From a virus (lineage: Duplodnaviria > Caudoviricetes): a DNA stretch of 63,242 nt. A program made the translations under genes and the position numbers. Shown piece after piece: positions 28,195 to 54,130 of the stretch; position 1 is the first letter of the stretch, and every line of letters begins with the position of its first letter. The stretch covers positions 1 through 63,242 of IMG/VR virus record IMGVR_UViG_3300032294_001820; one strand, written 5' to 3'. Below the pieces are notes generated by a model. The model was given only the letters and a program-made list of their open reading frames with translations. It searched no databases and was not told where the DNA came from.

Positions 28195-29436
28195 TTACTG
28201 AATTGTAATCAATGAAGAATACTGTGGAGCCTCAAACTGTAAGCCCAAAGAAGAACTCATTCCGAACTCATAGAAGTTGTTCAAAGAAGGACCACCGTTG
28301 TTACGAGGATTAATTGTCCAAGTAGCATCATAGCCTAACAATTTAACAGTTTTGATTTTCTCTTTCTGCAATACGAAGGCATAATTTTGCCATGCAGCAG
28401 GGAAACTTGCTCTGTCCTCAAAACGCAAATTAGGTACTAAAACTGCTTTTGCTGAACCGATGTCAATCATGTTCAGGTTCAATTTAGCAACCATGTCGTT
28501 TGGAGTGTAACGAGTCAAGGCAGACTTAAACTGCTTAGACAATTGAAGGATACGAGTAGGGGTAGCAAACAAGAACTTCTCTTCTCCAAGTGGACCACCC
28601 ATTGTGTTCAGCAACGCTGATTCAACGGCATCTCCAAAAGAAGAAATAGGAGTTTGAATGTTTGGACTACCAGCAGCCAACATTTCGTTCAAGATACCAC
28701 CCATCATTTTAACGGGAGTTCCGTCAGCCAAGAACATCATACCTTTTTTACCCATCCACAATTGGTTGGACATAGAGATACGGAAGTTTTTTAACATTCT
28801 ATCACGCTCGTCTGCAAGGAAAGTAGGCAGGTAGTTGTTTGACTTGTATTTCAACAATTCAACAAAACCATAACGCATACCAATCGCTAACAGATAAATG
28901 TAATTGTATTTACGCTGAAGGTTCAAACGGTAGTAGTTGCTGATATTGGTAGCACTATCACCCTCGATTTGAGAAGCAAAAGTAAGAACATCACCTGCTG
29001 CAATAGCAGGAAGACTGTCGTTCTGCATTGGAGTAACGGTAATAACATTACCGGCTTTAGCAGTTACAGTTCCTTGCTTGTTGTTAGGGTAAGTCAATAC
29101 CATGTTCAAGGTAACATTGTCAGAAGTAACAAGGGTTACATTCTGAGTAGTTGGCCATGTAACGGTTGCACTTACGGCATTTACAGGAAGACCATAACGG
29201 TCATAAGGGGCTTCAAACCACTCGTGTTCATCACTTGTCTTAGTGATAGGTGATTTGTCCATAAGCAATTTCAAATCGTAAAACTGCTGTGGGGCAGAAT
29301 CTACAATCGAAGTGTAAATCTCTCTTTCGAGGATTGCTTGTTGTTGGCCTGTTAGACCTCCCCAAAAGGAACCAAGGGGGTTTGCTGCGTTATTATTATA
29401 CGCTGCATTAGGCGGGGTGTATTGTGTACTTGCCAT
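28195..29436 (-). CDS. Major capsid protein (HK97 fold)
   Basis: 413 aa after portal and scaffold; SDEHEWFE and LWMGKK...MMGGIL motifs typical of podovirus capsid proteins. Confidence 0.8.
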   Translation of the reverse strand: MASTQYTPPNAAYNNNAANPLGSFWGGLTGQQQAILEREIYTSIVDSAPQQFYDLKLLMDKSPITKTSDEHEWFEAPYDRYGLPVNAVSATVTWPTTQNVTLVTSDNVTLNMVLTYPNNKQGTVTAKAGNVITVTPMQNDSLPAIAAGDVLTFASQIEGDSATNISNYYRLNLQRKYNYIYLLAIGMRYGFVELLKYKSNNYLPTFLADERDRMLKNFRISMSNQLWMGKKGMMFLADGTPVKMMGGILNEMLAAGSPNIQTPISSFGDAVESALLNTMGGPLGEEKFLFATPTRILQLSKQFKSALTRYTPNDMVAKLNLNMIDIGSAKAVLVPNLRFEDRASFPAAWQNYAFVLQKEKIKTVKLLGYDATWTINPRNNGGPSLNNFYEFGMSSSLGLQFEAPQYSSLITIQ

Positions 29437-29449
29437 TTCTTTTTAAGAA

Positions 29450-30595
29450 TTAAATTTTGTGAGTGTTAGTTCGAAGCCAATCTGGTACTATGTTTTGCTC
29501 ATTGGATTTCATAGAACTATCTCCACCTTTTTCATCTGCAACGGTATCTCTCCCTCGGCTAACAACCCCTGCAAGTTGGTCAGAAAGTTCTTTGTTCTTC
29601 TGCTGTAACTTCGTAAGTTTTTTGCTCAATCTTTCGATTTCTGTGGGAGCATACTGAATTAATGCAAGTTTTTTGGCGGCATCTACCCGATAAGTACCAT
29701 CCTTGTTGAAAAACTCAGAACCTAAACCGCCACCTGTTAAGACCTTTTCGAGTTTCTTCAACTCTTTGTCGTCAATACCAGGGAAGTCAGCCTTGACCTG
29801 TTCGAGTGAACTGAGTGCGGAATTCTTGAAAGAGTTTTGTCTTTCGTTTTGAACACGCTTTGCCTCAGCAACCTGCCGGTCATTCTGTTGTTTGTCAAGT
29901 CGGAAAGCTTTTTCAGCAACCCTTAACAAGCGTAAGACTTCTTTAGAATTTGGGTCATCTTCAAATTCCTCTTGAGTCAATTCATCTGGTGCATAGGCTT
30001 CGATTAATGCCCATCTGTCCTGACTTTCCAAGTCTTTATTAAAATCAAGTTTCAATCCAGGAGCAGACATAATTGCTTGTTTCCAATCACTGCCATTGTT
30101 ATAGGCTTCGATAGCCTTAACGATTTCAGGAGGCATTTCAGCAAATGCTGTTTCTATATCTTCCTTGTATTTTTCGAGTTCTGTTGCCTTCTGTGCATTG
30201 GTTCTTTGCTTGTTAAAAGCCTCAACCAATTTTGCATATCCAGCAGGGGTGTTTACATCAATTCCTAATTTTTCCTTGATATAACCTTTGGCTTCGCTTT
30301 CATCCTTGAAATTTACTTTAGTACCTTTCTTAGATTGAAATACGCTTACTTCTTCTTCTTCATCCTGTTCTTCCTCAAATTCTACCTCAGCCTCAATTAC
30401 AGGTGCTTCGGTGTTTTCGGGAGTTTCAGTTGTTTCAGGTGCTTGTTGTCTGGGAGTATCCTCTACTTCGGTTAAATAACCCTTTGCTTTGGCATATTCT
30501 ACCGGTGATAAATGGTTTAGAACGGGGTCTAATTCCATTACCTCCCTGATTTCTACTTCTTGTTCAGGGGTTAAAAGTGCTTGTTGTTCTGACAT
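29450..30595 (-). CDS. Capsid scaffolding protein
   Basis: Acidic coiled-coil 381-aa protein between portal and capsid genes. Confidence 0.65.
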   Translation of the reverse strand: MSEQQALLTPEQEVEIREVMELDPVLNHLSPVEYAKAKGYLTEVEDTPRQQAPETTETPENTEAPVIEAEVEFEEEQDEEEEVSVFQSKKGTKVNFKDESEAKGYIKEKLGIDVNTPAGYAKLVEAFNKQRTNAQKATELEKYKEDIETAFAEMPPEIVKAIEAYNNGSDWKQAIMSAPGLKLDFNKDLESQDRWALIEAYAPDELTQEEFEDDPNSKEVLRLLRVAEKAFRLDKQQNDRQVAEAKRVQNERQNSFKNSALSSLEQVKADFPGIDDKELKKLEKVLTGGGLGSEFFNKDGTYRVDAAKKLALIQYAPTEIERLSKKLTKLQQKNKELSDQLAGVVSRGRDTVADEKGGDSSMKSNEQNIVPDWLRTNTHKI

Positions 30596-35685: not shown

Positions 35686-38055
35686 TTAAACTAAACTTAC
35701 TACTCTCCTTAGGTTCCCATTGGCATCCCTGACAAAAGTATTCTTTACTTTTTTAGGTCTGTTTTCATCTATGAACTCCGGATACCTGTGGCTACTCTGA
35801 TAAACCTGTGAAGCCATATACGCAAAAGTTGAACTAAAAAGAATATCATCGTAATGCTTCTTTAGGTTCTCGGCTTGCCACTTAATACCTCCGTTAGCAG
35901 TATCCTTCTGAATAAATGTTTTGTGCTGTTCCCAGAACTCCTGAATGTAAATATTATCCCCATACATTTCAGACAATTCCTTCAATTTATTGATAATCTT
36001 ACCCTTAGTAGCAGCCTTATTGCTTATACCTATTCTTGAGCCGTCAATGTGCATCATAGGATTCAACTCCTTGTTATAAATCAAGTTTTTGTCAAATCCT
36101 TTCCTCTCCCTAAACCCAATGTAATCCCCTCCAATATTGTACTCAATCAACTCAGGTGTACCCTTCCACTCCTTTTGGTCATAGTATAACCCCATCAATA
36201 AACTCTGTTGGTAGCACTCCATAAAATTCCGAACACGCCAAAATAACTGACAACTAATGGTATTCCACTCGGCATCCCAAATCGTACTCGAAAACTTACT
36301 ATGCCCACTCTCTGTATTTATAGGGTCGGTTCCCTGAAAATATCTATGCTTCCACCTCTTATCGGGTTCGTGAAACATAATTATTGGTGGATCGTCCTCG
36401 TAAGCCATTGGCACGAATATCACTCCAACAACTCTATATGGCCAATCATTAATATCAGTAGTAGGACTATTGGTATCAAAAACGGGTTCAAATCTGCCGT
36501 AAATAGGTTTTGCAGCATCCTCTAAATCCCATATCCTTTTCAAATGACTATTGCAGGTAGAAATAGGAACCAATGTGTTTACACTCCGGATGAACATATC
36601 GTCAATATGAACGGGATAACCGGCATGAAACTGACTTATAGTAGCATCTCTGTCGGCACCGATTTTCGAATAAGCATTGGTTTTTTCACTTTCATAAAAC
36701 TCTCCCTCGATACCTGGTTTGCAAAAAGCATCAAGAAATACAGGTATAATTCCGTACTTGAAATTCCTTTTCTTCCAATTCTCTAATGCAGCCTTAAACT
36801 CTGTTTCAAAACTATCGGTTTTCATTTCTCCACCGGTTCCCCACATAAACAACTGCCGTTTGTACTCAATCCGTTTGGTTTCTGGATTGTAAATAAACAT
36901 AGTCGGACGAGCTTCGTTGACCATTTTAGTCAGAATAGGGATATTCCCAATTTCATCTATAAGCACTAATTGAGGACTACCTGAGTTCACAGCCGTTGCA
37001 CTTGGAGGAACTACCTCAACTTTAGAATTTGCTCCATCTACTCTACCCTTAACCTCCTTTAAGCCAAACTTCAACTGCCTTTCTTGGTCGCTAAAACTAC
37101 TTGGAACCAAATAGTGTGGCGTTTCGCTTATCGGGTACTTGATTTTATCCTCAAATACGCTTCGGGTCTTGCTGTCATCCTCACAAATGTACTTGGTAAA
37201 CCACTCTCTGCGGTACATAGTCTTAGAAGCAGCACCCATTCCGATTATACTCGTAATACCCAACTGCCTCATTTTACCGATTACAGCAGATAACTCGCAA
37301 TCAAGCAAGTACAAAAGTAGTTTCTGTGCTTTGTAAGGCTCTATTCGCCTTCTGCCACCATCGTAACTACCATCCTTTAACCTGCCGTTTTTATACACAT
37401 AGTACAGGCTGTTTTGCTCATACCTACGCTTTTCCTCTACACAGAAATCAATTTGTTCGTCAATTCCAAAAGCATTGTTTATATCATACCCTGCTTGGTA
37501 CCAATCCTCTGCTTGTTGGCAATAAAGATTAAATTTAGAGTATTCTGTTGCATAACTGAACCCTCTTGGAAACCATGAATCTACCCACTTAACGAAGGTT
37601 GTGTCGAAATCAAACTTATCACCATTCCTATATGGAATCCAATCTGCCTTGACAATCTTACCGCCCCTGTAATGCGTAAGGACATTTTCTTGCTCCTGAA
37701 GTTTGCGTTCCTCGGTAACAATTACCGTAGGTGCATCCTTGAAATTCCCCTCTAAGATCTCTATGTAGTTATCGCTAACTTGTTCGAATAACTGCTTTGT
37801 ATGTGTTTGCCCGAACTTCTGTTCAAGTTTACCTGTAAGCCGTTTTGACCTCGCTATTCGTTTCTTTCTGAATGCCTTGGCAATGTATTCACCAGGGGCA
37901 TAGTCGCTGTTTATCGCATGACCTTTGCGTTCAAGTTCTACGACATACTTTGGGGGCATAACACTTTCAGCACCGTACTCAAATAACATTGAATACAAGT
38001 CTGAAAGATTCTGTAATAGTATCTTTTCGTAATTTATTGCTCTTGGTTCAGGCAT
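35686..38055 (-). CDS. terL: Terminase large subunit
   Basis: Walker A-like GKMRQLGITS, Walker B VLIDEIG, coupling motif WGTGG, nuclease motifs QGTDP and HYDDILFS. Confidence 0.9.
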   Translation of the reverse strand: MPEPRAINYEKILLQNLSDLYSMLFEYGAESVMPPKYVVELERKGHAINSDYAPGEYIAKAFRKKRIARSKRLTGKLEQKFGQTHTKQLFEQVSDNYIEILEGNFKDAPTVIVTEERKLQEQENVLTHYRGGKIVKADWIPYRNGDKFDFDTTFVKWVDSWFPRGFSYATEYSKFNLYCQQAEDWYQAGYDINNAFGIDEQIDFCVEEKRRYEQNSLYYVYKNGRLKDGSYDGGRRRIEPYKAQKLLLYLLDCELSAVIGKMRQLGITSIIGMGAASKTMYRREWFTKYICEDDSKTRSVFEDKIKYPISETPHYLVPSSFSDQERQLKFGLKEVKGRVDGANSKVEVVPPSATAVNSGSPQLVLIDEIGNIPILTKMVNEARPTMFIYNPETKRIEYKRQLFMWGTGGEMKTDSFETEFKAALENWKKRNFKYGIIPVFLDAFCKPGIEGEFYESEKTNAYSKIGADRDATISQFHAGYPVHIDDMFIRSVNTLVPISTCNSHLKRIWDLEDAAKPIYGRFEPVFDTNSPTTDINDWPYRVVGVIFVPMAYEDDPPIIMFHEPDKRWKHRYFQGTDPINTESGHSKFSSTIWDAEWNTISCQLFWRVRNFMECYQQSLLMGLYYDQKEWKGTPELIEYNIGGDYIGFRERKGFDKNLIYNKELNPMMHIDGSRIGISNKAATKGKIINKLKELSEMYGDNIYIQEFWEQHKTFIQKDTANGGIKWQAENLKKHYDDILFSSTFAYMASQVYQSSHRYPEFIDENRPKKVKNTFVRDANGNLRRVVSLV

Positions 38056-45347: not shown

Positions 45348-45783
45348 AAACCCACACTCCTTTCAATGTTGCGTCTGGGTGCGTGGCGGGAATTAATTGC
45401 CAAATCTCCAAAGCATGATTATAATATCGCACCATCTTCACCTCAATCGCAATTGGGATGCGTGGGGTGCGGAGGGATGCGATAAAGTCATCAAATGAAT
45501 CAAATGGCTCAAGTGTTCTACCGTAAGCGAATGCCTGAGCCATATCGTACAAGGTAAACTCGTACTTCTCACGGGCTTTGGAGTAACCTCTAACAAAGCC
45601 ACTTTTCAAATCTTTATTTAAGTCGTATGGATTACCTCCTCTGATGCTATCAATGTCAGTTCCGTATTGGGATTCAGCCATCCCCTCAATATCATCATCC
45701 TGATAATTTGGTATCTTAGGCAACTTGTACCCCTCCAATTCGGGGCAGGTTAGTTCGGGGGTTAGTTTAAATGTTTTTTTCAT
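45340..45783 (-). CDS. Hypothetical protein
   Basis: 147-aa ORF. Confidence 0.65.
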   Translation of the reverse strand: MKKTFKLTPELTCPELEGYKLPKIPNYQDDDIEGMAESQYGTDIDSIRGGNPYDLNKDLKSGFVRGYSKAREKYEFTLYDMAQAFAYGRTLEPFDSFDDFIASLRTPRIPIAIEVKMVRYYNHALEIWQLIPATHPDATLKGVWVYE

Positions 45784-45784
45784 G

Positions 45785-45940
45785 TTAATTACAATCGTTT
45801 AATTCAAATTCAATGATTTTTGAAACTTTCCTGTACATAAAATAATAGAAGTCTGGATAATAATTACTTCGATTCAATCTCCTTGCCTCGATTCGGTTGC
45901 GGATGTCGGAGGGGCGGATTATTTTTTTGTGGATAAACAT
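45785..45940 (-). CDS. Small hypothetical protein (51 aa)
   Basis: Hand-translated MFIHKKIIRPSDIRNRIEARR...ELNDCN*, filling the gap exactly. Confidence 0.45.
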   Translation of the reverse strand: MFIHKKIIRPSDIRNRIEARRLNRSNYYPDFYYFMYRKVSKIIEFELNDCN

Positions 45941-45943
45941 ATT

Positions 45944-45998
45944 TAAATTGCTGATTGTCAGATATGGTTTAGAATATTGTTGCGTAAAGCCTGTTGTT
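45944..45998 (+). other. attI-like landing pad A
   Basis: IHF-like box (AATCAGCAATTTA on minus, 45944-45956), N23, TTGCGTA, N7, TTG^TT; same layout as pad B. Confidence 0.6.
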
Positions 45999-46803
45999 AG
46001 CTGCCATGCCGTGACAGCCTCCGTTAAAACATTCGTAGTTGTGATTTGAAGTCATTAAAACGCTTTTTAGATTTTTCGTAATAATCGGCATCAATCTCAA
46101 ATCCAACAAAGTTGAACCCACCTTTGTCCGCTGCTATTCGTGAGCTTCCACTTCCCAAGTGAGTATCCAAAATCAAATCCCCACGCTTTGCATAGTTCTG
46201 TAAAATCCAATCATACAATGCTACTGGCTTTTGTGTGGGATGTATCCGTTCTTCTTTGTCCTTCATATTCTGTTGTAACATTCCGTTCCATCTCCATTGA
46301 AACTTCCTTACTGCAGTATCAAATGAAGTCCAAGCCAATTCACAATCAGCGAAGTTTCCTGTATTGTCTTTATCCCACACAAGCCAGCAGCTACTATCGT
46401 GTGGCATTTTACTAATAAAGTGATTAGCCCCCCACACAATTTGATTTTTGGATACTCTAAACAGTTGGCGGAAATATTCTTCATTTGGTGGCTGTTTATC
46501 CCATTCTTTAGCTCCGTAATCCTTAGCTTTACCTGCGTTGTTTCCGCCAACCTTCCCAGTTTTAGCCACGTCAATCCCATAAGGTGGGTCAACTATCGCT
46601 AAATCAAAATGGTTATCGTTAAAGCGTTTTAATGCCTCCGTGCAGTCTTCTAAATAAACTTCGGTGAAAGGCACGGCAGCTAACACGGGTTTGGCAAAAG
46701 CGGGGCTTCCGTTTTCCAAATCAACTTTTGTATGTAAATCAAATTCTGTCATTCTATTAAACTTTTGTGGTTAAATTCCCCGCCTTCGCCAAGCCCGAAA
46801 ACG
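45997..46803. mobile_element. Integron-like gene cassette 1 (807 bp)
   Basis: Start GTTAGCTGCC (45996) is the exact reverse complement of GGCAGCTAAC (46675), which opens its attC-like hairpin. Confidence 0.8.
46024..46752 (-). CDS. DNA N6-adenine / N4-cytosine methyltransferase (beta class)
   Basis: IVDPPY, HPTQKP and LDTHLGSGS motifs. Confidence 0.92.
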   Translation of the reverse strand: MTEFDLHTKVDLENGSPAFAKPVLAAVPFTEVYLEDCTEALKRFNDNHFDLAIVDPPYGIDVAKTGKVGGNNAGKAKDYGAKEWDKQPPNEEYFRQLFRVSKNQIVWGANHFISKMPHDSSCWLVWDKDNTGNFADCELAWTSFDTAVRKFQWRWNGMLQQNMKDKEERIHPTQKPVALYDWILQNYAKRGDLILDTHLGSGSSRIAADKGGFNFVGFEIDADYYEKSKKRFNDFKSQLRMF

Positions 46804-46812
46804 TTATGTGCC
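46675..46812 (+). repeat. attC-like site 1
   Basis: ...CTAAC, 20-nt arm 46686-46705, loop, 20-nt arm 46778-46797 (17/20 complementary), AAAAC, GTT. Confidence 0.8.
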
Positions 46813-47134
46813 ATTAATAGACACCACTCCAAGTACAATTGTGATACGGCTTCTTAATGTCGTTGCCGTTTTTGCCTCTTAATTTAAGAGAGTTGGTTCT
46901 CTTAAATCCAAAGTTTTTAAAATAAGCGACCTCAATAAACGGCAACTTAAATCCGAATGAATAATGAAAATGGTGTATGTAATGAACACCAGTAAGCAAT
47001 TGAATTAATCTAAATTTTTTCATCTGTTTTTAAATTTTAACGGCACATAACAAGGGCTTTGCGTAATAGCCCTATCAAGTGTCGTGGTTAATTTTAAGTT
47101 TCTACTAAGGGCTACTACGCAAAGCCCCGATACG
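46804..47134. mobile_element. Integron-like gene cassette 2 (331 bp)
   Basis: Start GTTATGTGCC (46803) is the exact reverse complement of GGCACATAAC (47042). Confidence 0.8.
46814..47023 (-). CDS. Small basic hypothetical protein (cassette 2 cargo)
   Basis: 69-aa ORF filling the cassette, with an A-rich leader. Confidence 0.55.
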   Translation of the reverse strand: MKKFRLIQLLTGVHYIHHFHYSFGFKLPFIEVAYFKNFGFKRTNSLKLRGKNGNDIKKPYHNCTWSGVY

Positions 47135-47140
47135 TTACCT
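47042..47140 (+). repeat. attC-like site 2
   Basis: ...ATAAC, arms GGGCTTTGCGTAATAGCCCT / AGGGCTACTACGCAAAGCCC (19/20), CGATAC, GTT. Confidence 0.8.
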
Positions 47141-47524
47141 CTTTACCCCTATCCAAAACCCATCCCCACTAATCGGGTATCGGTCAACCCGTTTGAATTC
47201 GAGTTTGCCCGGTGTAATGCGATAAATCAGGGCTTCGTTATTCCAATCAGTAACATCCCAGACCTGAACGAAATAATGCGAGTGTTTGCCGTAAAGTTTG
47301 ATAATAACGGCACAATCCGAGGCGAGTGTATCTTTATCGGACATAAACCAATCGGGGTACAAGCAGGACAAAGGAATAGCATCGAAGCCTTCGTAAACCT
47401 CGTTACGATTCAAGTCTATTAGTACCGTATCTTTTGGAATTTCGTTTCGGGTAAGCGTCCATCCGGCATAGTATTTATCGGATTCAAGTGCCCATAGTGG
47501 GTGTGTTGATGGTGTGAATGTCAT
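47135..47524 (-). CDS. Hypothetical protein
   Basis: 129 aa; its TAA stop forms the GTT core that closes array A. Confidence 0.65.
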   Translation of the reverse strand: MTFTPSTHPLWALESDKYYAGWTLTRNEIPKDTVLIDLNRNEVYEGFDAIPLSCLYPDWFMSDKDTLASDCAVIIKLYGKHSHYFVQVWDVTDWNNEALIYRITPGKLEFKRVDRYPISGDGFWIGVKR

Positions 47525-47697
47525 GATACGCTAAATGTTTTACCTGTTGATGTTTCGCAATAATACCTGCCTATTAAACCGTTTCTATAATGGAAATCGT
47601 TTGCAACAGATATTGCATGATTGTCTGAAATTGCTTCAAGTTTAAATTCTTGAATATTTACCCCACCGGAAATCTTGAACATTATAAATGTTATCAT
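47521..47697 (-). CDS. Small hypothetical protein (58 aa)
   Basis: Hand-translated MITFIMFKISGGVNIQ...GKTFSVS*; ATGA overlap; follows an ECF-like motif. Confidence 0.55.
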   Translation of the reverse strand: MITFIMFKISGGVNIQEFKLEAISDNHAISVANDFHYRNGLIGRYYCETSTGKTFSVS

Positions 47698-47705
47698 ACT
47701 CCTTA

Positions 47706-47730
47706 TACGCTATTCGTTCCAAAAAGTTAC
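47706..47730 (-). promoter_or_regulatory. ECF-sigma-like promoter GTAAC-N16-CGTA
   Basis: Followed by TAAGGAGTATG. Confidence 0.65.
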
Positions 47731-47846
47731 TTGCCCGTCTTAACTATCCTCAATATTGTCGATTCGGCTTTGCCGTACATTTTGGCTATGTCGTAGATTG
47801 ACATTCCACACTCGTAAAATGCAAGGATGTATTGGGTTTCGGTCAT
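47727..47846 (-). CDS. Mini HTH protein (39 aa)
   Basis: Hand-translated MTETQYILAFYECGMSIYDIAKMYGKAESTILRIVKTGK*. Confidence 0.55.
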   Translation of the reverse strand: MTETQYILAFYECGMSIYDIAKMYGKAESTILRIVKTGK

Positions 47847-48625
47847 TTCAATTTCGGGTTAACTCTCAATGATTTCTTCCAGTCCAAGCCGGATGGGAGG
47901 GTGTGGTTAGATTTAAAATCAACTTGATTCCAAGTGCCTTCTCTTCCCATGTTGTGAAGTACACCATACCAGCGACCTTTTCCGATTTCATCAAAACAAT
48001 GCACATTAGCCCAATCCGGAGCCTTCTCCCAATCCACCTGATACGGGTCGGGTTCAGAGTTGCGTAATGATTCAGCCGTTCTAATTATTTCGTCAAGTTC
48101 GGTTTGCGTTGCAATTACATTGTGTTCCTGATGCAATAGGTTAAACAATGGCTGATAATATTCAGCAACTTCCTGTATTGGTTTAGCCGTAACCGATTCG
48201 TGTACGCTGATGTGGTATTGGATAGGTCGGATGGGGCGGTAGCGGTTAGTGGATGGGATTGTAGGATTGTTCCAGATGTAACCAACTTGCATTTGCTCCG
48301 ATTCTGGCACACTCAAAATTATCTCCACCTTCACCCACTTCTCCGCATCTTCCTCGGTGCAGAACTCGTAGCCTTCTGGGAGTAAATGGGTGTAATCGGG
48401 TTCTGAACTATTCGGTTTTTCCGAATGGTTCAACTTCCCAAAATTATTCGGAATGTGCTGTTCGGCTAAGTGTGCCTCGATTCGCTCAATCCTTAATTGA
48501 AGTCTGTCAATTTGTTCCTGTTTTTTCCCCATTGGTTTAATTATATTAATGATTTCCTGCATATCTGAATCGGTTGCAATCAACCCCAATTCATGTAGAT
48601 AGTTAAATAGTTTTTGGTTTTTCAT
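47843..48625 (-). CDS. Mosaic hypothetical protein
   Basis: 260 aa with an internal repeat LFNxLH...IATxxxxxEII and a C-terminal VDWEKAPDWA module. Confidence 0.65.
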   Translation of the reverse strand: MKNQKLFNYLHELGLIATDSDMQEIINIIKPMGKKQEQIDRLQLRIERIEAHLAEQHIPNNFGKLNHSEKPNSSEPDYTHLLPEGYEFCTEEDAEKWVKVEIILSVPESEQMQVGYIWNNPTIPSTNRYRPIRPIQYHISVHESVTAKPIQEVAEYYQPLFNLLHQEHNVIATQTELDEIIRTAESLRNSEPDPYQVDWEKAPDWANVHCFDEIGKGRWYGVLHNMGREGTWNQVDFKSNHTLPSGLDWKKSLRVNPKLK

Positions 48626-48978
48626 GGTTTAAATAGATTGCTGGTGATTTTCAAAAGTGAAGGATACCTCCAATTATGCAAGTGCCAAAACTCGCCATTG
48701 CTATTCTCGACAACAAATGAACCATTTCTATATAAAACCTCTCCCAAAACCTCTCCTGTTATTCTTACTCGCATTCCTTCAAATATTTTATCTGCATTTT
48801 TATCGCACAACCCCGTAAACTGCCCAACGCTGTCGGGGTGAACGGGGATAATATCAGTTAGGCTATTTATTTCAATTGGAAGAATCCATTTTTTATTTAT
48901 CTCACATTGAATCAAATCACCCTCAACCCACTTGTTTAGGCTTTCTGAGAAGCCTCTAAATAGTATTATTCTTTTCAT
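48622..48978 (-). CDS. YopX-family protein
   Basis: ILFRG...WVEGDL...VGQFTGLCDKN..KIFEG motif. Confidence 0.85.
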   Translation of the reverse strand: MKRIILFRGFSESLNKWVEGDLIQCEINKKWILPIEINSLTDIIPVHPDSVGQFTGLCDKNADKIFEGMRVRITGEVLGEVLYRNGSFVVENSNGEFWHLHNWRYPSLLKITSNLFKP

Positions 48979-48986
48979 ACTCCTTT

Positions 48987-49019
48987 TACGCTTACTTACT
49001 CGGTTTTGTTACAAATGTA
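48987..49019 (-). promoter_or_regulatory. ECF-like promoter (48987-49012) plus TACATTTG box (49012-49019)
   Basis: GTAAC-N17-CGTA followed by AAAGGAGTATG. Confidence 0.65.
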
Positions 49020-49071
49020 AGTTGTTGATGTTCATATGTGAATTATGGTAGTATTGCGTATATTTATTGTT
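49018..49071 (+). other. attI-like landing pad B
   Basis: IHF-like box (CATCAACAACTTA on minus, 49018-49030), N23, TTGCGTA, N6, TTG^TT. Confidence 0.6.
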
Positions 49072-49822
49072 AGCGGAAAGCATTAGCACCCTGCTTATCA
49101 TTGAACATTTTTACCCTTTGTTCGTCAATTTCGTATGCTATAAAATTCCTATTTAATTCTTGACAAACTTCGCCAACTATTCCACTCCCAAAAAACGGGT
49201 CTAAAACTATCCCATTATCAGGGCAAAAGCATTTAATAAGTATCTGTATTAAATCTTTCGGCTTTGCAGGTATTTTTCCCGTATGTGGCTTATTAAAATG
49301 ATAGTGGTCTCTTATCCAAGTTCCTTCATCTGATTTATCAAATTGCCTTCCTTCCGCTTTGTAGTCTCCAAATACCTTACTACTTCGCTTCATTGATTTT
49401 GTGCCTTCATTGTAATCTAATCCAGTTCTTACATCTACATAAAAGTCTTTGCTCAATGTAAGCCAAAAAATTTTTTGGAAGGATACAAGTGGCATTCGCT
49501 TACTTACCCAAGCACCACCATTTGAAAAACTCCAAATAATTTCACGCCTAAATATGTGGTTTACTTCGTTCCGCAATTCGTAATCAAATGGTTGCTTAGT
49601 GAAGCAAATAATATTTCCAGTTAGTTTTGTAACCCTTACTGCTTGACAAATTAAACCTTCTTCGCAAAGTTTATCCCAATCCTGATAATCGGGGTCTAAT
49701 ATTGTTAAGTCAATACTATGGTCATCTAAATCGCAAATTAAATCCATTGCGTTACCGAGAATTAACCCATGCCTTCCGCTAACATCGGTTTGGCAAAATG
49801 GGGGCTGACTGCTTTCTATCAT
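49070..49822 (-). CDS. DNA N6-adenine / N4-cytosine methyltransferase (beta class, DPDY variant)
   Basis: ILDPDY, PAKPKDL and VLDPFFGSG motifs. Confidence 0.85.
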   Translation of the reverse strand: MIESSQPPFCQTDVSGRHGLILGNAMDLICDLDDHSIDLTILDPDYQDWDKLCEEGLICQAVRVTKLTGNIICFTKQPFDYELRNEVNHIFRREIIWSFSNGGAWVSKRMPLVSFQKIFWLTLSKDFYVDVRTGLDYNEGTKSMKRSSKVFGDYKAEGRQFDKSDEGTWIRDHYHFNKPHTGKIPAKPKDLIQILIKCFCPDNGIVLDPFFGSGIVGEVCQELNRNFIAYEIDEQRVKMFNDKQGANAFR

Positions 49823-49902
49823 CTTTTATCTGTTATTGAACATTAGTAATTCTAATCGGCTTTTGTTGGTATAATTCCCCCACTTCGCCAAGCCCGAAAA
49901 CG
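49070..49902. mobile_element. Integron-like gene cassette 3 (833 bp)
   Basis: Start GTTAGCGGAAAGCAT (49069) matches the reverse complement of ATGCCTTCCGCTAAC (49769-49783) at 14/15. Confidence 0.8.
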
Positions 49903-49908
49903 TTATTC
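49771..49908 (+). repeat. attC-like site 3
   Basis: Same AAC-to-GTT length as attC1 (124 nt); shares TTTGGCAAAA and CTTCGCCAAGCCCGAAAACGTTAT, with compensatory changes in the stem. Confidence 0.8.
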
Positions 49909-50211
49909 CTCCATCGCCTTCCTTGCAATATTTTCCCGGAACAAATCTTTCCTACTGCAATACAAATCCCACATAGCCATTTCTTGCGAAGTTATCTGGT
50001 CAATGACCAAATCTGTTTGATGAATTGAAACCAAATATAACGCCTTGTTAGTGATTGCTTCTTTCCGCCAATACATTTCATTGGTTTTGGAAATATCTCG
50101 CCGTGTTGAGGCTGTAATCCACGCTACGATTAATCCGGCACAGATAAAGGTCATCAGGTAGAATCCGAACTTGTAATAAAATCGGTAGGTATAGGAGGAG
50201 GGCATTTTCAT
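49903..50211 (-). CDS. Single-TM hypothetical protein
   Basis: FYLMTFICAGLIVAWI; its TAA stop forms the GTT core that closes array B. Confidence 0.6.
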   Translation of the reverse strand: MKMPSSYTYRFYYKFGFYLMTFICAGLIVAWITASTRRDISKTNEMYWRKEAITNKALYLVSIHQTDLVIDQITSQEMAMWDLYCSRKDLFRENIARKAMEE

Positions 50212-50468
50212 AATTCGTCCTGTGTGTTGTTTGGTGTTAAATTATACCTGTTTAAATAATCCACTCCGATATGAGGCACATTGTCCCTTATGTAGAATTG
50301 GCAGAATTTAATTTGCACGGCTTTGAGGTCGCTGTACGGCACTAATTCGATTCCAGATTTATTACTTGCAATCATCCGGTAAAGCATGATTTTTAGATTC
50401 TCGTTCTCGTATTGTAACGATTCGAGGCGTTTCTCTAATTCCTGAACTTGTTGGGATAGTTTGGTCAT
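50208..50468 (-). CDS. Hypothetical coiled-coil protein
   Basis: 86 aa with ATGA overlaps. Confidence 0.6.
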   Translation of the reverse strand: MTKLSQQVQELEKRLESLQYENENLKIMLYRMIASNKSGIELVPYSDLKAVQIKFCQFYIRDNVPHIGVDYLNRYNLTPNNTQDEL

Positions 50469-50968: not shown

Positions 50969-51397
50969 TTATACGGTTTTAGGTTCATTTTGTTTCACCA
51001 AGGTAGCCAACATTTTCAGAGCGTCTTTATCCCCGATTGAAATTAATCCGCTGAAATCGTCTCTGTGATGCATTACCGTAGTGTGGTCAATATACCCGAG
51101 CATATTGGCTGTGTCTTTCAGGCTCAAGTTATTCAACTCAGTTAGGTAGTAACACAATGCTTTTCGAATGTTTATAATTTTCCTCAGCCTACATTTTGAC
51201 CGGATGGATTCTGGAGTGAATCCGTAATATTTAAGCCATTCAGAAAGGTCTTCAATCTTTTGAATTTTCCGCTTCGATATGTCGGGAGCAAGTGCTTGCA
51301 ATCGTCTGCGTTGTTCCTCGTATATCATATCGCTCAATGCTTGGCTGACTGCTTGCTGTCCGCATAACTTTACGGCTCGGTGGTATGCGTTGCTCAT
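50969..51397 (-). CDS. DnaA C-terminal-like HTH protein
   Basis: SKCRLRKI...RKALCYY...LSLKDTANMLGYIDHTTVMH. Confidence 0.75.
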   Translation of the reverse strand: MSNAYHRAVKLCGQQAVSQALSDMIYEEQRRRLQALAPDISKRKIQKIEDLSEWLKYYGFTPESIRSKCRLRKIINIRKALCYYLTELNNLSLKDTANMLGYIDHTTVMHHRDDFSGLISIGDKDALKMLATLVKQNEPKTV

Positions 51398-51666
51398 ATC
51401 TCAAACACCTTAACAGCCTCAACCAAACTCAAATCTACCTTATCCAAGCCATGACAAATAGTGCTGGGATGTTGGTTGTAAATCGCACCTATCTCTTCAC
51501 AGGTCAATCCTTTTCGCCTGAGATTCCACGCAATCGCTCGTCTGATTGCAACTATCTCTCGGTATTGGATACCGCTCAGGATTAATTCTTTCGTTACTGG
51601 CATCCATGTGTCGGTAAGCCTATTTTGCTTATCTCGCAGTCGGTATTTTAATTGGTTCTCGTTCAT
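51394..51666 (-). CDS. DnaA C-terminal-like HTH protein
   Basis: REIVAIRRAIAWNLR..GLTCEEIGAIYNQHPSTICH. Confidence 0.7.
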   Translation of the reverse strand: MNENQLKYRLRDKQNRLTDTWMPVTKELILSGIQYREIVAIRRAIAWNLRRKGLTCEEIGAIYNQHPSTICHGLDKVDLSLVEAVKVFEI

Positions 51667-52423: not shown

Positions 52424-53236
52424 TTAATTGTCTGGAGTAATATCTAACGGAAGTTCTCCATTGTTTGTTTCAGGTTGTTCTTGTTGCTGAACAAACAACT
52501 CATTCAAATTAGGCTTCTCAACAATGAACTGCTGATTATCCAAGTCAATTACATTGCTAATCTGCTCAGACTTCGGCAAATACTTGTAGTGCCTCTTAAT
52601 TACGGTTTTCTTCCGCATTTCATCAGCCCAATTACTTTCCTGCCAAGGACTATATTGAGAGTTTGCACCATCACTTTTACTTTTAATCTTCTCTAACTCC
52701 CATCCAGGCATAAACTCATAATCAAGGCTTCCATCTGCTAATGTAGCACAGGAATATGCCCCAATTACTTTCCTTGCCATGTGTTCCTTCTCGGTTTCAG
52801 CATATCTTTGCTCATGTACTACGACCATTCTCGTACTTGCATTGTACTCAAATTGTTCATCGTCATAAACAACTACTGCTGATACCTTCTTTACGCTTCC
52901 TGAATCAGTAAGAATCTTTGTCAAACCCATATAAGAAGGGTCAAGTACGGCTTTCCCTTTGCGTGGGATAAGATATGCCAACTTCATTGCAGGATTCAAT
53001 GTAAGCCCTGTAAATGCGATATTCTCAACAGCACTACGAATGCTCACTAAATCAACATTCTGCCACCCTTTAGGATTGTTCTGAATAATTTGCAAGGCAA
53101 AGTTAGCCTCCTTGACAAATGTTTCCTGTGGCATTACGGATAGGAACCTCGCTTTTGCTGCTGCGATAGCCTCTGAAGGGGTAGTGATTTTTGCAGGTTT
53201 ATTTTCCTGCTTCTGAATTGCGTTTGTTTCTGACAT
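52424..53236 (-). CDS. recT: RecT-family ssDNA annealing protein
   Basis: GLTLNP...AYLIPR...SYMGL, SPW...EMRKKTVIKR..KYLPKS. Confidence 0.9.
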   Translation of the reverse strand: MSETNAIQKQENKPAKITTPSEAIAAAKARFLSVMPQETFVKEANFALQIIQNNPKGWQNVDLVSIRSAVENIAFTGLTLNPAMKLAYLIPRKGKAVLDPSYMGLTKILTDSGSVKKVSAVVVYDDEQFEYNASTRMVVVHEQRYAETEKEHMARKVIGAYSCATLADGSLDYEFMPGWELEKIKSKSDGANSQYSPWQESNWADEMRKKTVIKRHYKYLPKSEQISNVIDLDNQQFIVEKPNLNELFVQQQEQPETNNGELPLDITPDN

Positions 53237-53251
53237 GATTATTGGTTTAAA

Positions 53252-54130
53252 TTAAAGTTCTACTAATCCAAATTCGTTTGTGGCAAAGTATTCTACTCCT
53301 GGCCATTTAACACCCTCCATCCAAGGTTCTCCAAACTTATCAAGGCAATCACGATAAATCTGCTTCGCACGAGTGTAAATAGTCTTTCCTGCACTAACAG
53401 AATAATCCTGCCAAACAGAGTTAAATTCACCTGGAGATTGTGGCACCAAGAAAAATCCGTTCTGTTGGCTTTCTTTATGACATCCAATTACGATATGATA
53501 CTTGGTTTCGATACCCATTGTTACCTCTACGGCTTCGGTATAAACTGCTAATTGAGCATGAATAAGCCTATCTCTGTGCTTAATGTAGGTTTTCATACTT
53601 TCAATATCAATGTCGGGTAGTTTCTTTAAGTCGCCTATTACAGCAAATCCTGAAACAACTTTGAACAAATCCACTTTGCCTTTCATGGGAATATTGTACT
53701 CAGTGTCTATCCAATGAAATTCCTTCTCTACTTCGGCATCGCTGAATAGTTGCTGATAGATTGGAGATTTACGAACATTTCCTGCGGTACTCATAATTTC
53801 ATCCCAATCTTCTTGTTTGATAATTGGAGTTACTTTATCGAGTTCGCATTGATTTAGAAATTCATCCCGGATGCCTTTGTTTACTGCGGATCGAAATTCA
53901 ATCTTACCTTCTTTGTTGCGTTCAAGCCTTGTGTCTGCAAGTAGTCTGAATCTATTAAAGATTTCAGTTTGTTCCATTGTTGCTGTATGGATAAACTGCC
54001 CGTGGTTCATTGCTTCTGTGGTTTCGATGCCATTAAGCAGGTAGTATTGGTAGTGTGCAGGACTTTTCAGAATATGCTTTATTCCTGAACTGCTGAAACG
54101 GGTTTTGTCTGAGTAATATATTTGGCTCAT
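53252..54130 (-). CDS. RecE / exonuclease VIII-like PD-(D/E)XK nuclease
   Basis: SSSGIK...SPAHY, KGKVD...GDLK, QLAVY; adjacent to recT. Confidence 0.8.
   Translation of the reverse strand: MSQIYYSDKTRFSSSGIKHILKSPAHYQYYLLNGIETTEAMNHGQFIHTATMEQTEIFNRFRLLADTRLERNKEGKIEFRSAVNKGIRDEFLNQCELDKVTPIIKQEDWDEIMSTAGNVRKSPIYQQLFSDAEVEKEFHWIDTEYNIPMKGKVDLFKVVSGFAVIGDLKKLPDIDIESMKTYIKHRDRLIHAQLAVYTEAVEVTMGIETKYHIVIGCHKESQQNGFFLVPQSPGEFNSVWQDYSVSAGKTIYTRAKQIYRDCLDKFGEPWMEGVKWPGVEYFATNEFGLVEL

Follow-up and report, generated by a model that had tools for sequence, protein, structure and literature searches.

The virus record IMGVR_UViG_3300032294_001820 (Duplodnaviria; Caudoviricetes) comprises 63,242 bp, and this whole stretch is the window analysed here. 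It holds two arrays of gene cassettes, A and B, and each array opens at a short conserved site, called pad A and pad B below. Our main finding is that these pads are probably double-stranded entry sites of the attI type, belonging to a cassette system of integron-like character that occurs both in Bacteroidota and in their phages. Each pad ends in G/TTA (the slash marks the crossover), at 45996 and 49069, and this is also the left limit of a DNA methyltransferase cassette that is closed by an attC-like hairpin.

The core of a pad is TTGCGT, then 9-10 nt, then G/TTA, and both pads terminate in TTGTTAGC. The letters, coordinates and spacings with which the preliminary description introduced the two sites were all exact on re-reading: TTGCGTA lies at 45980 and 49054, exactly 23 nt beyond an upstream box that had been likened to a binding site of integration host factor (IHF), and TTGTT follows 7 nt (A) or 6 nt (B) further on. 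The likeness of the two cores over positions -17 to -1 is beyond chance, as 1 of 2000 shuffles was equally good. The left arm of the pad is an inverted copy of the box found at cassette ends, GTTAnnnGCAAT, with 5 nt between it and the crossover, or 4 nt in the case of pad B, and the score of the pad B arm, 7/9, is the highest among the 1151 GTTR sites of the genome. Because the left arm is an inverted cassette-end box at the spacing of a core site, the label attI-like, given to the pads at the outset, is well founded: they have the geometry of a double-stranded tyrosine recombinase core site, in which two inverted arms enclose a central region of 6-8 bp. Here the central region is the 5-nt spacer, or 7 bp if the inner C and G are counted, and the cleavage positions are presumed ones. 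The right box, the pad left arm and the inner stem of the hairpins (GGGTTTGGCAAAA) all carry GCAA at positions 8-11 from the inner end. The pad is therefore a box-spacer-box site in double-stranded form, the duplex counterpart of the folded hairpin, and this explains why pad A, read on the minus strand, resembles the left arm of hairpin attC2 (47048-47073), a likeness pointed out earlier and indeed present. The half-motif alone is insufficiently rare by itself in this genome, with 3 matches vs 1.24 in shuffles.

The cassettes that follow the pads have precise boundaries (Table 1). Rightward of pad A lie a methyltransferase gene, an imperfect hairpin of 142 nt, orf69 and a hairpin of 106 nt. 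The first hairpin of array A (attC1a) and that of array B (attC1b) are 86-87% identical at a spacing of exactly 3099 nt, and methyltransferase genes A and B are unlike at the DNA level. Inverted ends enclose every cassette gene in the window, and the two ends of a pair complement each other over 15 nt apart from a single, fixed mismatch. One end of each pair begins at 45996, 46803 or 49069, and the opposite one terminates in TAAC at 46684, 47051 or 49783; the 15 nt from 45996 and the 15 nt ending in TAAC 46684 are complementary at 14/15 positions, as are those from 49069 and those ending in TAAC 49783, and the complementary ends of cassette 2 read GTTATGTGCC and GGCACATAAC. All three hairpins fold better as minus-strand DNA (-22.4 vs -15.3, -20.5 vs -19.1 and -15.7 vs -11.0 kcal/mol). 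With hairpins called by a covariance model, R1, the window can be classed as a cluster of attC sites lacking an integrase (CALIN), for which two or more attC sites within 4 kb are required with no integrase near them; the two hairpins of array A are 226 nt apart and the one of array B lies 2.6 kb beyond.

Table 1. Pads, upstream boxes, cassettes and distal junctions in the window
Feature	Position	Strand	Remarks
Box A	45944..45956	-	IHF-consensus-like; reads AATCAGCAATTTA; matches WATCARNNNNTTR; within the homologous ~60-nt flank left of TTGCGTA (~45920-45979)
Pad A left arm	45979..45990	+	GTTGCGTAAAGC; inverted degenerate box copy; reverse complement matches 6/9 defined positions of GTTAnnnGCAAT; 5-nt spacer
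Pad A spacer and crossover G	45991..45996	+	Spacer CTGTT; boundary G45996/T45997
Cassette 1	45997..46803	-	N6/N4 DNA methyltransferase A (open reading frame [ORF] 46024-46752) and hairpin attC1a (46673-46814 with flanks); PF01555, 8e-19; covariance model, 121 bits
Cassette 2	46804..47134	-	orf69 (46814-47023) and hairpin attC2 (47040-47145 with flanks); covariance model, 74.4 bits
Array A distal junction	47135..47149	+	TTA is the stop codon of backbone orf129; box consensus absent
Box B	49018..49030	-	Reads CATCAACAACTTA; C where the consensus needs W (position 1); does not match WATCARNNNNTTR
Pad B left arm	49053..49064	+	ATTGCGTATATT; 7/9 to the box consensus; 4-nt spacer
Pad B spacer and crossover G	49065..49069	+	Spacer TATT; boundary G49069/T49070
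Cassette 3	49070..49902	-	N6/N4 DNA methyltransferase B (ORF 49070-49822) and hairpin attC1b (49772-49913 with flanks); PF01555, 6e-23; covariance model, 103.5 bits
Array B distal junction	49903..49917	+	TTA is the stop codon of backbone orf102; box consensus absent

The three cassette genes of the window are antisense to the array direction. Two of them, the methyltransferase genes, begin inside the hairpin loop, and their ORFs cross the conserved left arm in two different frames, reading ..PAFAKPVLA.. in A and ..PPFCQTDVS.. in B; it is therefore at the DNA level that the arm is conserved. It appears that the cassette gene takes its translation start from the hairpin. The TAA of the boundary TAAC serves as the stop codon of an ORF of at least 60 codons at 17/56 array ends and 73/296 internal boundaries in viral loci, and it is used in this way at both array ends of the window and by methyltransferase B.

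The hairpins belong to a family with a wide distribution. At least 118 viral contigs contain the exact 23-mer of the attC1 right arm, as do at least 120 genome contigs, nearly all from Bacteroidota and including isolates. The stem is borne out by an alignment of 33 elements, in which 93% of cells are paired and 13/21 pairs are altered on both sides; none of 500 shuffles equalled this. Model R1 was built for the search (a structural finder of our own gave 17.6 matches per shuffled genome at threshold and was dropped), and in the window, even unfiltered, it finds exactly three elements, with none at the pads. In 115 viral sources it gave 460 matches, reduced to 455 same-strand elements, with up to 15 elements per locus. 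For 320 neighbouring pairs, the 15 nt after G/TT were compared with the reverse-complemented 15 nt that precede the next TAAC; they agree at 12.0/15 positions (mode 14), and random pairs at 7.7. Position 11 is A vs G in 265 of these pairs, so that the plus strand has an A.C mismatch there and the minus strand a G.T pair. Complementary cassette ends are the signature of integron-type cassettes, in which the two halves of the site are joined upon circularisation. The family also has the features by which classical attC sites are recognised, namely a hairpin with inverse core AAC and core GTT, stronger conservation of structure than of sequence, and a boundary at G/TT; its spacers of 2 and 6 nt and its strong sequence conservation set it apart from the usual attC sites. 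Very short hairpin sites of ~50 nt (loop ..CATTAAAACGA..), lying between TAAC and GTTA, escape R1 (examples are in L042, L026, L033, L061, L022, L080 and L095, and in L262 at 30010-30065), and the element counts are therefore lower bounds. The orientation of cassette genes varies among loci: on a Daejeonella oryzae contig (L197, 136-7023) they run in the same direction as the hairpins, each gene preceding its hairpin in the manner of classical integrons, and in a hemulen phage locus (L121) they are antisense to the hairpins, like in the window. One Bacteroidia chromosome (L158, 1-2015, and L249, 569-1103) has a cassette of ~530 nt at least four times in tandem, at 96-100% identity, and a further copy elsewhere beside a Xer-like recombinase gene.

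Pads of this kind form a class of their own at array starts. The left boundary of a first cassette was located as the complement of the 15 nt before its hairpin, a procedure that uses only sequence to the right of the boundary. In loci of at most 14 kb it yielded 183 candidates, 110 of them at 12/15 or better and 91 unique boundaries at 13/15 or better. These 91 divide into 38 with an ordinary hairpin arm (C at -1) and 53 without a hairpin, the pad class; the rule on which the class rests, that base -1 is not C, leaves out some real entry sites (three of the four next to a recombinase gene; L037). Within the 53 pads conservation is found at -16 (T, 34/53), -15 (T, 32/53), -14 (G, 33/53), -13 (C, 43/53), -12 (G, 37/53), -11 (T, 26/53), -9 (A or T, 51/53) and -8 (A, 48/53). 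The strict word T[TGA]GCG[TG], placed at -17 to -15, occurs in 22/53 pads, 1/38 hairpin-type boundaries and 75/8095 control GTTA sites. When the arm is combined with the cassette-end box, the motif has 22 matches in 1.02 Mb on both strands, of which 21 are at accepted boundaries and one is 114 nt before an element. The inverted-arm match to the cassette-end box peaks at a spacer of 5 and nowhere else, scoring 5.06/9; other offsets give no more than 2.94, and controls 2.4. A scan of related phages and Bacteroidota chromosomes, at array starts and beside candidate integrases, which the preliminary description had proposed as its check, had a positive outcome, with the motif at array starts.

Two families of small genes directly follow pads, one of ~74 aa whose proteins end in ..PF (L012, L014, L020, L051, L066 and L072) and one of ~60 aa with a ribbon-helix-helix-like FIRxAIxEK stretch and the ending ..CPF (L023, L025, L033, L057, L065, L112 and L018). 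Two such proteins, taken as examples, had no Pfam match; it is conceivable that these genes could encode accessory DNA-binding factors of the system. Two viruses related to the window by a backbone protein of 260 aa (L001 and L002) have no hairpin elements, and L002 has only one chance half-motif; there is therefore no close relative with the same backbone.

Several observations show that cassettes have been exchanged from backbone to backbone at such boundaries. Three hemulen-type Flavobacterium phages share an identical flank of 60 nt followed by three different first cassettes. Six cassette types each occur beside two unrelated flanks, and the likeness begins at /GTTA. Methyltransferase cassette A itself recurs in L037 at 71% identity over 46025-46806, and partly in G040, on unrelated backbones. 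Contigs from other metagenome studies start exactly at 45996, 46803, and 49069 or 49067; assembly graphs break in this manner where the neighbours vary.

A candidate enzyme adjoins related sites. Six of the nine tyrosine recombinases (PF00589) found in related viral records are small (265-294 aa), and the four that were typed are all Xer-like, with NF040815 as best model, below its cut-off. To the integron-integrase model TIGR02249 they align in two pieces, also below cut-off, skipping model positions ~180-238, the IntI-specific insertion; an IntI with its specific extra domain was found neither in the window nor among the recombinases beside related arrays, and in five Bacteroidota genomes no integrase scored above the cut-off of the integron model. 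For 5/6 small viral recombinases a cassette boundary of the form GTTRnnnG(C/T)AA lies 38-55 nt before the ATG, with hairpins beyond, and the sixth contig ends at GTTA. Three bacterial relatives are 37% identical to a phage one, and in all three a pad-like site (e.g. CAGCGTATATCTACTA before GTTA) lies just after the 3' end of the gene, followed by cassettes. The array-start class, its geometry and these recombinase-adjacent sites support the earlier view that the pads are dedicated recombination sites and not chance secondary ones.

Based on these patterns, we infer a single-strand mechanism, and we consider that the pads may still be active. The pad core, a degenerate inverted left arm of 12 bp, a spacer of 5 nt (A) or 4 nt (B) and the crossover G/TTA, would serve as the double-stranded partner. 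A circular cassette would fold one strand of its hairpin site, here presumably the better-folding minus strand, into the same box-spacer-box shape, and a tyrosine recombinase would exchange strands at G/TT and so place the cassette beside the pad. The enzyme is likely the small Xer-like recombinase without the IntI insertion that adjoins such sites in some relatives. As this phage has no tyrosine recombinase, the enzyme would act in trans or would have acted in the past.

A number of points weigh against the pads as entry sites. The window genome has no PF00589 match (it is 90% complete), and among related viruses the domain was found in 9/100 records searched (of at least 118), or 4/27 of those at least 90% complete; recombinases are thus scarce among relatives, and activity in these phages can only be surmised. 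The phage sites next to recombinase genes mostly have no CG core, and 3/4 have C at -1; they differ from the pads, so there must be more than one type of site. The strict motif is absent from 31/53 pads and was found at just 2/26 bacterial boundaries, where relaxed forms are frequent by eye. The native right halves of both sites in the window (47135... and 49903...) are off the box consensus. Moreover, the pads are related sequences, and counts of them are partly non-independent.

A further such point comes from a lake-water metagenome, run X4. Two of its entries (depth 5.1 and 3) join the orf51 region at 45916 to the pad B core at 49054 by way of 11 other letters, so that the pad B core stands directly before an orf51-like gene, without a box or a 23-nt spacer. 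A third contig, of depth 15.4 and side 39, leads from 45916 to 47148 across 18 other letters and has neither pad core nor array A. Contigs were placed at 90% likeness, and joints below 95% often come from other organisms; stretches of the window that no contig covers are no evidence of absence, and runs with small shares (X2-X20) are uninformative on habitat. These joints suggest that relatives of the backbone exist in lake water in two forms, one without pad A and array A and one with the pad B core directly before an orf51-like gene. The third contig suggests that the pad arrived or left together with array A and did not pre-exist in the backbone. A joint between 46699 and 49880, considered as a deletion, was rejected, as it is another hairpin of the family, with a short loop, that maps to both arms.

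A wider proposal is that a second kind of integron, so far overlooked, exists in Bacteroidota and their phages, one with a small Xer-type enzyme, a highly conserved attC family, a dif-like entry site and, in its phage version, inverted cassettes. We put this forward tentatively, with the balance still somewhat against it. Its enzyme would be without the IntI insertion, the box of its entry site would have GCAA 8 bp from the centre, and its hairpin would supply the gene start. If it is true, virulent phages without an integrase could swap anti-restriction methyltransferases via a recombinase from the host or from a co-infecting phage.

With regard to the surroundings of the arrays, genes of the window are nearly all on the minus strand, the structural genes are large and there is no tRNA. 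CheckV puts the completeness of the record, which is the whole window, at 90%, and megablast of positions 40-60 kb against 50,697 phage records gave no match. A RecT-family protein (PF03837, 1.8e-27) and a PD-(D/E)XK nuclease (DUF3799) are encoded at 52424-54130, 2.5 kb from array B, and such a couple is a phage single-strand-annealing recombination pair. At 50969-51666 there are two neighbouring small proteins with a DnaA C-terminal helix-turn-helix domain (PF08299). A Pfam search of orf51 gave no match, and Rfam found nothing above threshold in 45500-50300, the best hit being potC (E value 0.27).

Among the other explanations, the one that survives best is that the arrays were imported as blocks of flank, core and cassettes from an integron-like platform, so that the pads would be relics that never served as landing sites here and are idle now. 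The genome without a recombinase and the X4 contig without pad and array A would fit this, as would the homology between the left sides of A and B (~45920-45995), which ends near the point of departure of that contig (45916). The upstream boxes look like a decayed beginning of the gene found after pads at other loci, and Polaribacter phage P12002L and L119 also have duplicated units of pad plus flank. Relics would be expected to decay, yet both cores retain the consensus and the geometry of the class, and the identical pads that hold different first cassettes in the three hemulen-type phages indicate that pads of the class are used. We therefore regard this explanation as unlikely.

Slightly less likely still is that a bending protein of the IHF/HU type binds to boxes 45944 and 49018 and aids recombination from there, at a set distance to the crossover. 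Accessory sites are known in attI1 in the range at which the boxes lie from the crossover, and integration of CTnDOT in Bacteroides needs a host factor. The preliminary description had named two IHF-consensus-like boxes in left flanks that it considered otherwise unrelated. Box A does match that consensus, but only the relaxed form (ATCAG) of the motif by which IHF sites are defined, WATCAANNNNTTR at a fixed position across independent sites; box B already departs from the consensus at position 1. The consensus occurs 19 times on the two strands of the 63-kb genome. Box B lies inside an open frame of 8 codons (49036-49010, minus) and overlaps a TAnnTTTG-like motif ahead of a YopX gene. Moreover, the flanks are not unrelated but homologous in register, anchored at TTGCGTA: their identity from there is 13/23, 23/36, 29/50 and 33/60, vs ~27% for random tiles of the genome, and random tiles as alike numbered at most 1/20000 at the longer lengths and 48/20000 at 23 nt; a free local alignment of the distal flank alone is marginal (121/2000). 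Because the flanks are gapless homology by common descent, the equal spacing of 23 nt carries no extra weight.

Across the 53 pads the boxes do not behave as a conserved part of the site either. No column left of -17 exceeds 0.5 bit, the largest being 0.50 at -40. The IHF consensus is found in 6/53 pads vs 1.2% of random 75-nt pieces, with three at -54/-52, and YTGATW at -50 to -44 in 9/53 vs 5.2%. Both rates are above random, and at one locus, L020, the motif stands outside a coding frame. However, 44 to 47 of the 53 pads are without such a box, and those that have one all belong to one subfamily of homologous flanks and are not independent for that reason. In L012, L014 and L051 the stretch of this flank family that includes box A aligns with the first codons (M-x-T-I-S) of the ~74-aa gene after the pad, and in the window the remnant of that frame is decayed, with 8 codons left at B and the start codon absent at A. 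Most likely, to judge from these alignments, the boxes are shared flank sequence, left over from the 5' end of the gene normally present after a pad. The relatives in run X4 that keep the pad B core with just 11 other letters before the gene also argue against a bending protein that acts through identically spaced boxes. Phage P12002L (L262) has the same layout as the window, with two pads whose ~65-nt flanks (29170-29235 and 37200-37265) are nearly identical, each opening an array with methyltransferase or Mom-like genes; R1 gave only weak matches there (26 and 22 bits), and its sites were read by eye. Both of its pads have a perfect IHF consensus 40 nt from the crossover, which keeps the accessory-site reading alive for this flank subfamily.

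It is very improbable that the shared sequence is a regulatory region or 5' leader of the downstream genes that was duplicated with the backbone and is no recombination site. Pads do lie 20-60 nt ahead of the next start codon, many of them precede small genes of the two recurrent families, and the TAnnTTTG-like motif at box B could be read in this way, but conservation is confined to the 17 nt adjoining the crossover and spares the region at promoter distance. Regulation also gives no reason why an inverted copy of the cassette-end box should stand at a single offset, and the core is found ahead of downstream genes that are unrelated to one another as well as behind the 3' end of recombinase genes in bacteria. 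Hardly credible at all is a movement of cassettes by homologous recombination between hairpin repeats, with pads as homology ends or chance GTT sites, for although the phage encodes the RecT protein and the nuclease and attC1a and attC1b are 86-87% identical, it would leave unexplained the 15-nt complementary cassette ends with their fixed mismatch, the exact switch at /GTTA and the conserved non-hairpin arm at array starts.

If the pads do function as entry sites, they would open a route by which DNA methyltransferases and other small genes are exchanged among the phages of a major aquatic and gut phylum. Integrons have been regarded as nearly absent from Bacteroidota, and a hairpin family, a definable entry site and a candidate recombinase are now found there. 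The pads are the part of the system that can be tested most easily, as they consist of 17 bp with a predicted arm, spacer and crossover. In the IntegronFinder 2.0 preprint, Bacteroidetes are listed with In0 elements only, plus one complete integron in Salinibacter. In the partially covered literature, main texts without supplements, neither cassette arrays with a Xer-like enzyme nor their entry sites turned up for Bacteroidota or for phages of this phylum, and there was no account of a conserved double-stranded entry site, a dif-like geometry, an adjacent Xer-like recombinase or the spread of one hairpin family through Bacteroidota chromosomes and phages.

Clusters of attC sites without an integrase are already known in phages, and the pads can be rated as real attI-type sites of an integron variant that has barely been described. 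According to the accessible text of Qi et al. 2023 (PMC9892861), CALINs occur in virulent phages, including Polaribacter phage P12002L, and some contain cassettes with N6_N4 methyltransferases; in an assay, IntI1 recombined one of the attC sites of P12002L at G/TT, and GTTRRRY motifs are the sole feature noted at CALIN boundaries. A conserved entry site, a Xer-like recombinase and a hairpin family that phages share with Bacteroidota chromosomes do not appear in that text.

The attI of classical integrons (attI1 of class 1) resembles the pads in being double-stranded, in standing at the start of the array, in its G/TT crossover and in its two inverse recombinase-binding boxes; its partner is a folded single-stranded attC, and in some relatives, though not in the window, the site lies beside the recombinase gene. 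The differences are that the window has two sites, no integrase and no IntI, and that the associated recombinases are without the IntI-specific insertion. Unlike attI1, the pads have 12-bp arms with GCAA at positions 8-11, and no direct-repeat accessory sites were found in them. Whereas classical cassette genes are promoterless, point away from attI and are read from Pc, those of the window point towards the site. The PeSL cassettes of T4-type phages offer another comparison: repeated stem-loops flank small variable genes and carry expression signals, and the exchange is considered homologous. In the system described here, by contrast, boundaries are site-specific at G/TT, cassette ends complement each other, and the entry site is an element of its own. 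Xer/dif core sites offer a third comparison: arms of 11-12 bp, inverted and grouped about a short centre, occur in these sites, in the pdif modules of Acinetobacter plasmids, which are bounded by Xer-family sites, and in the integration of CTX phage at dif1, where a folded single strand mimics a double-stranded site. The cassette system of the window shares with these the inverted arms around a short centre, the presumed Xer-family enzyme and the modules bounded by sites, and its folded hairpin strand would likewise mimic a duplex site. It differs from them in its arrays of long hairpins with complementary cassette ends, which are integron-like, and it has no XerC/XerD pair or dif context. If the pads are functional, they would form a natural link between Xer/dif-type sites and the attI and attC sites of integrons.

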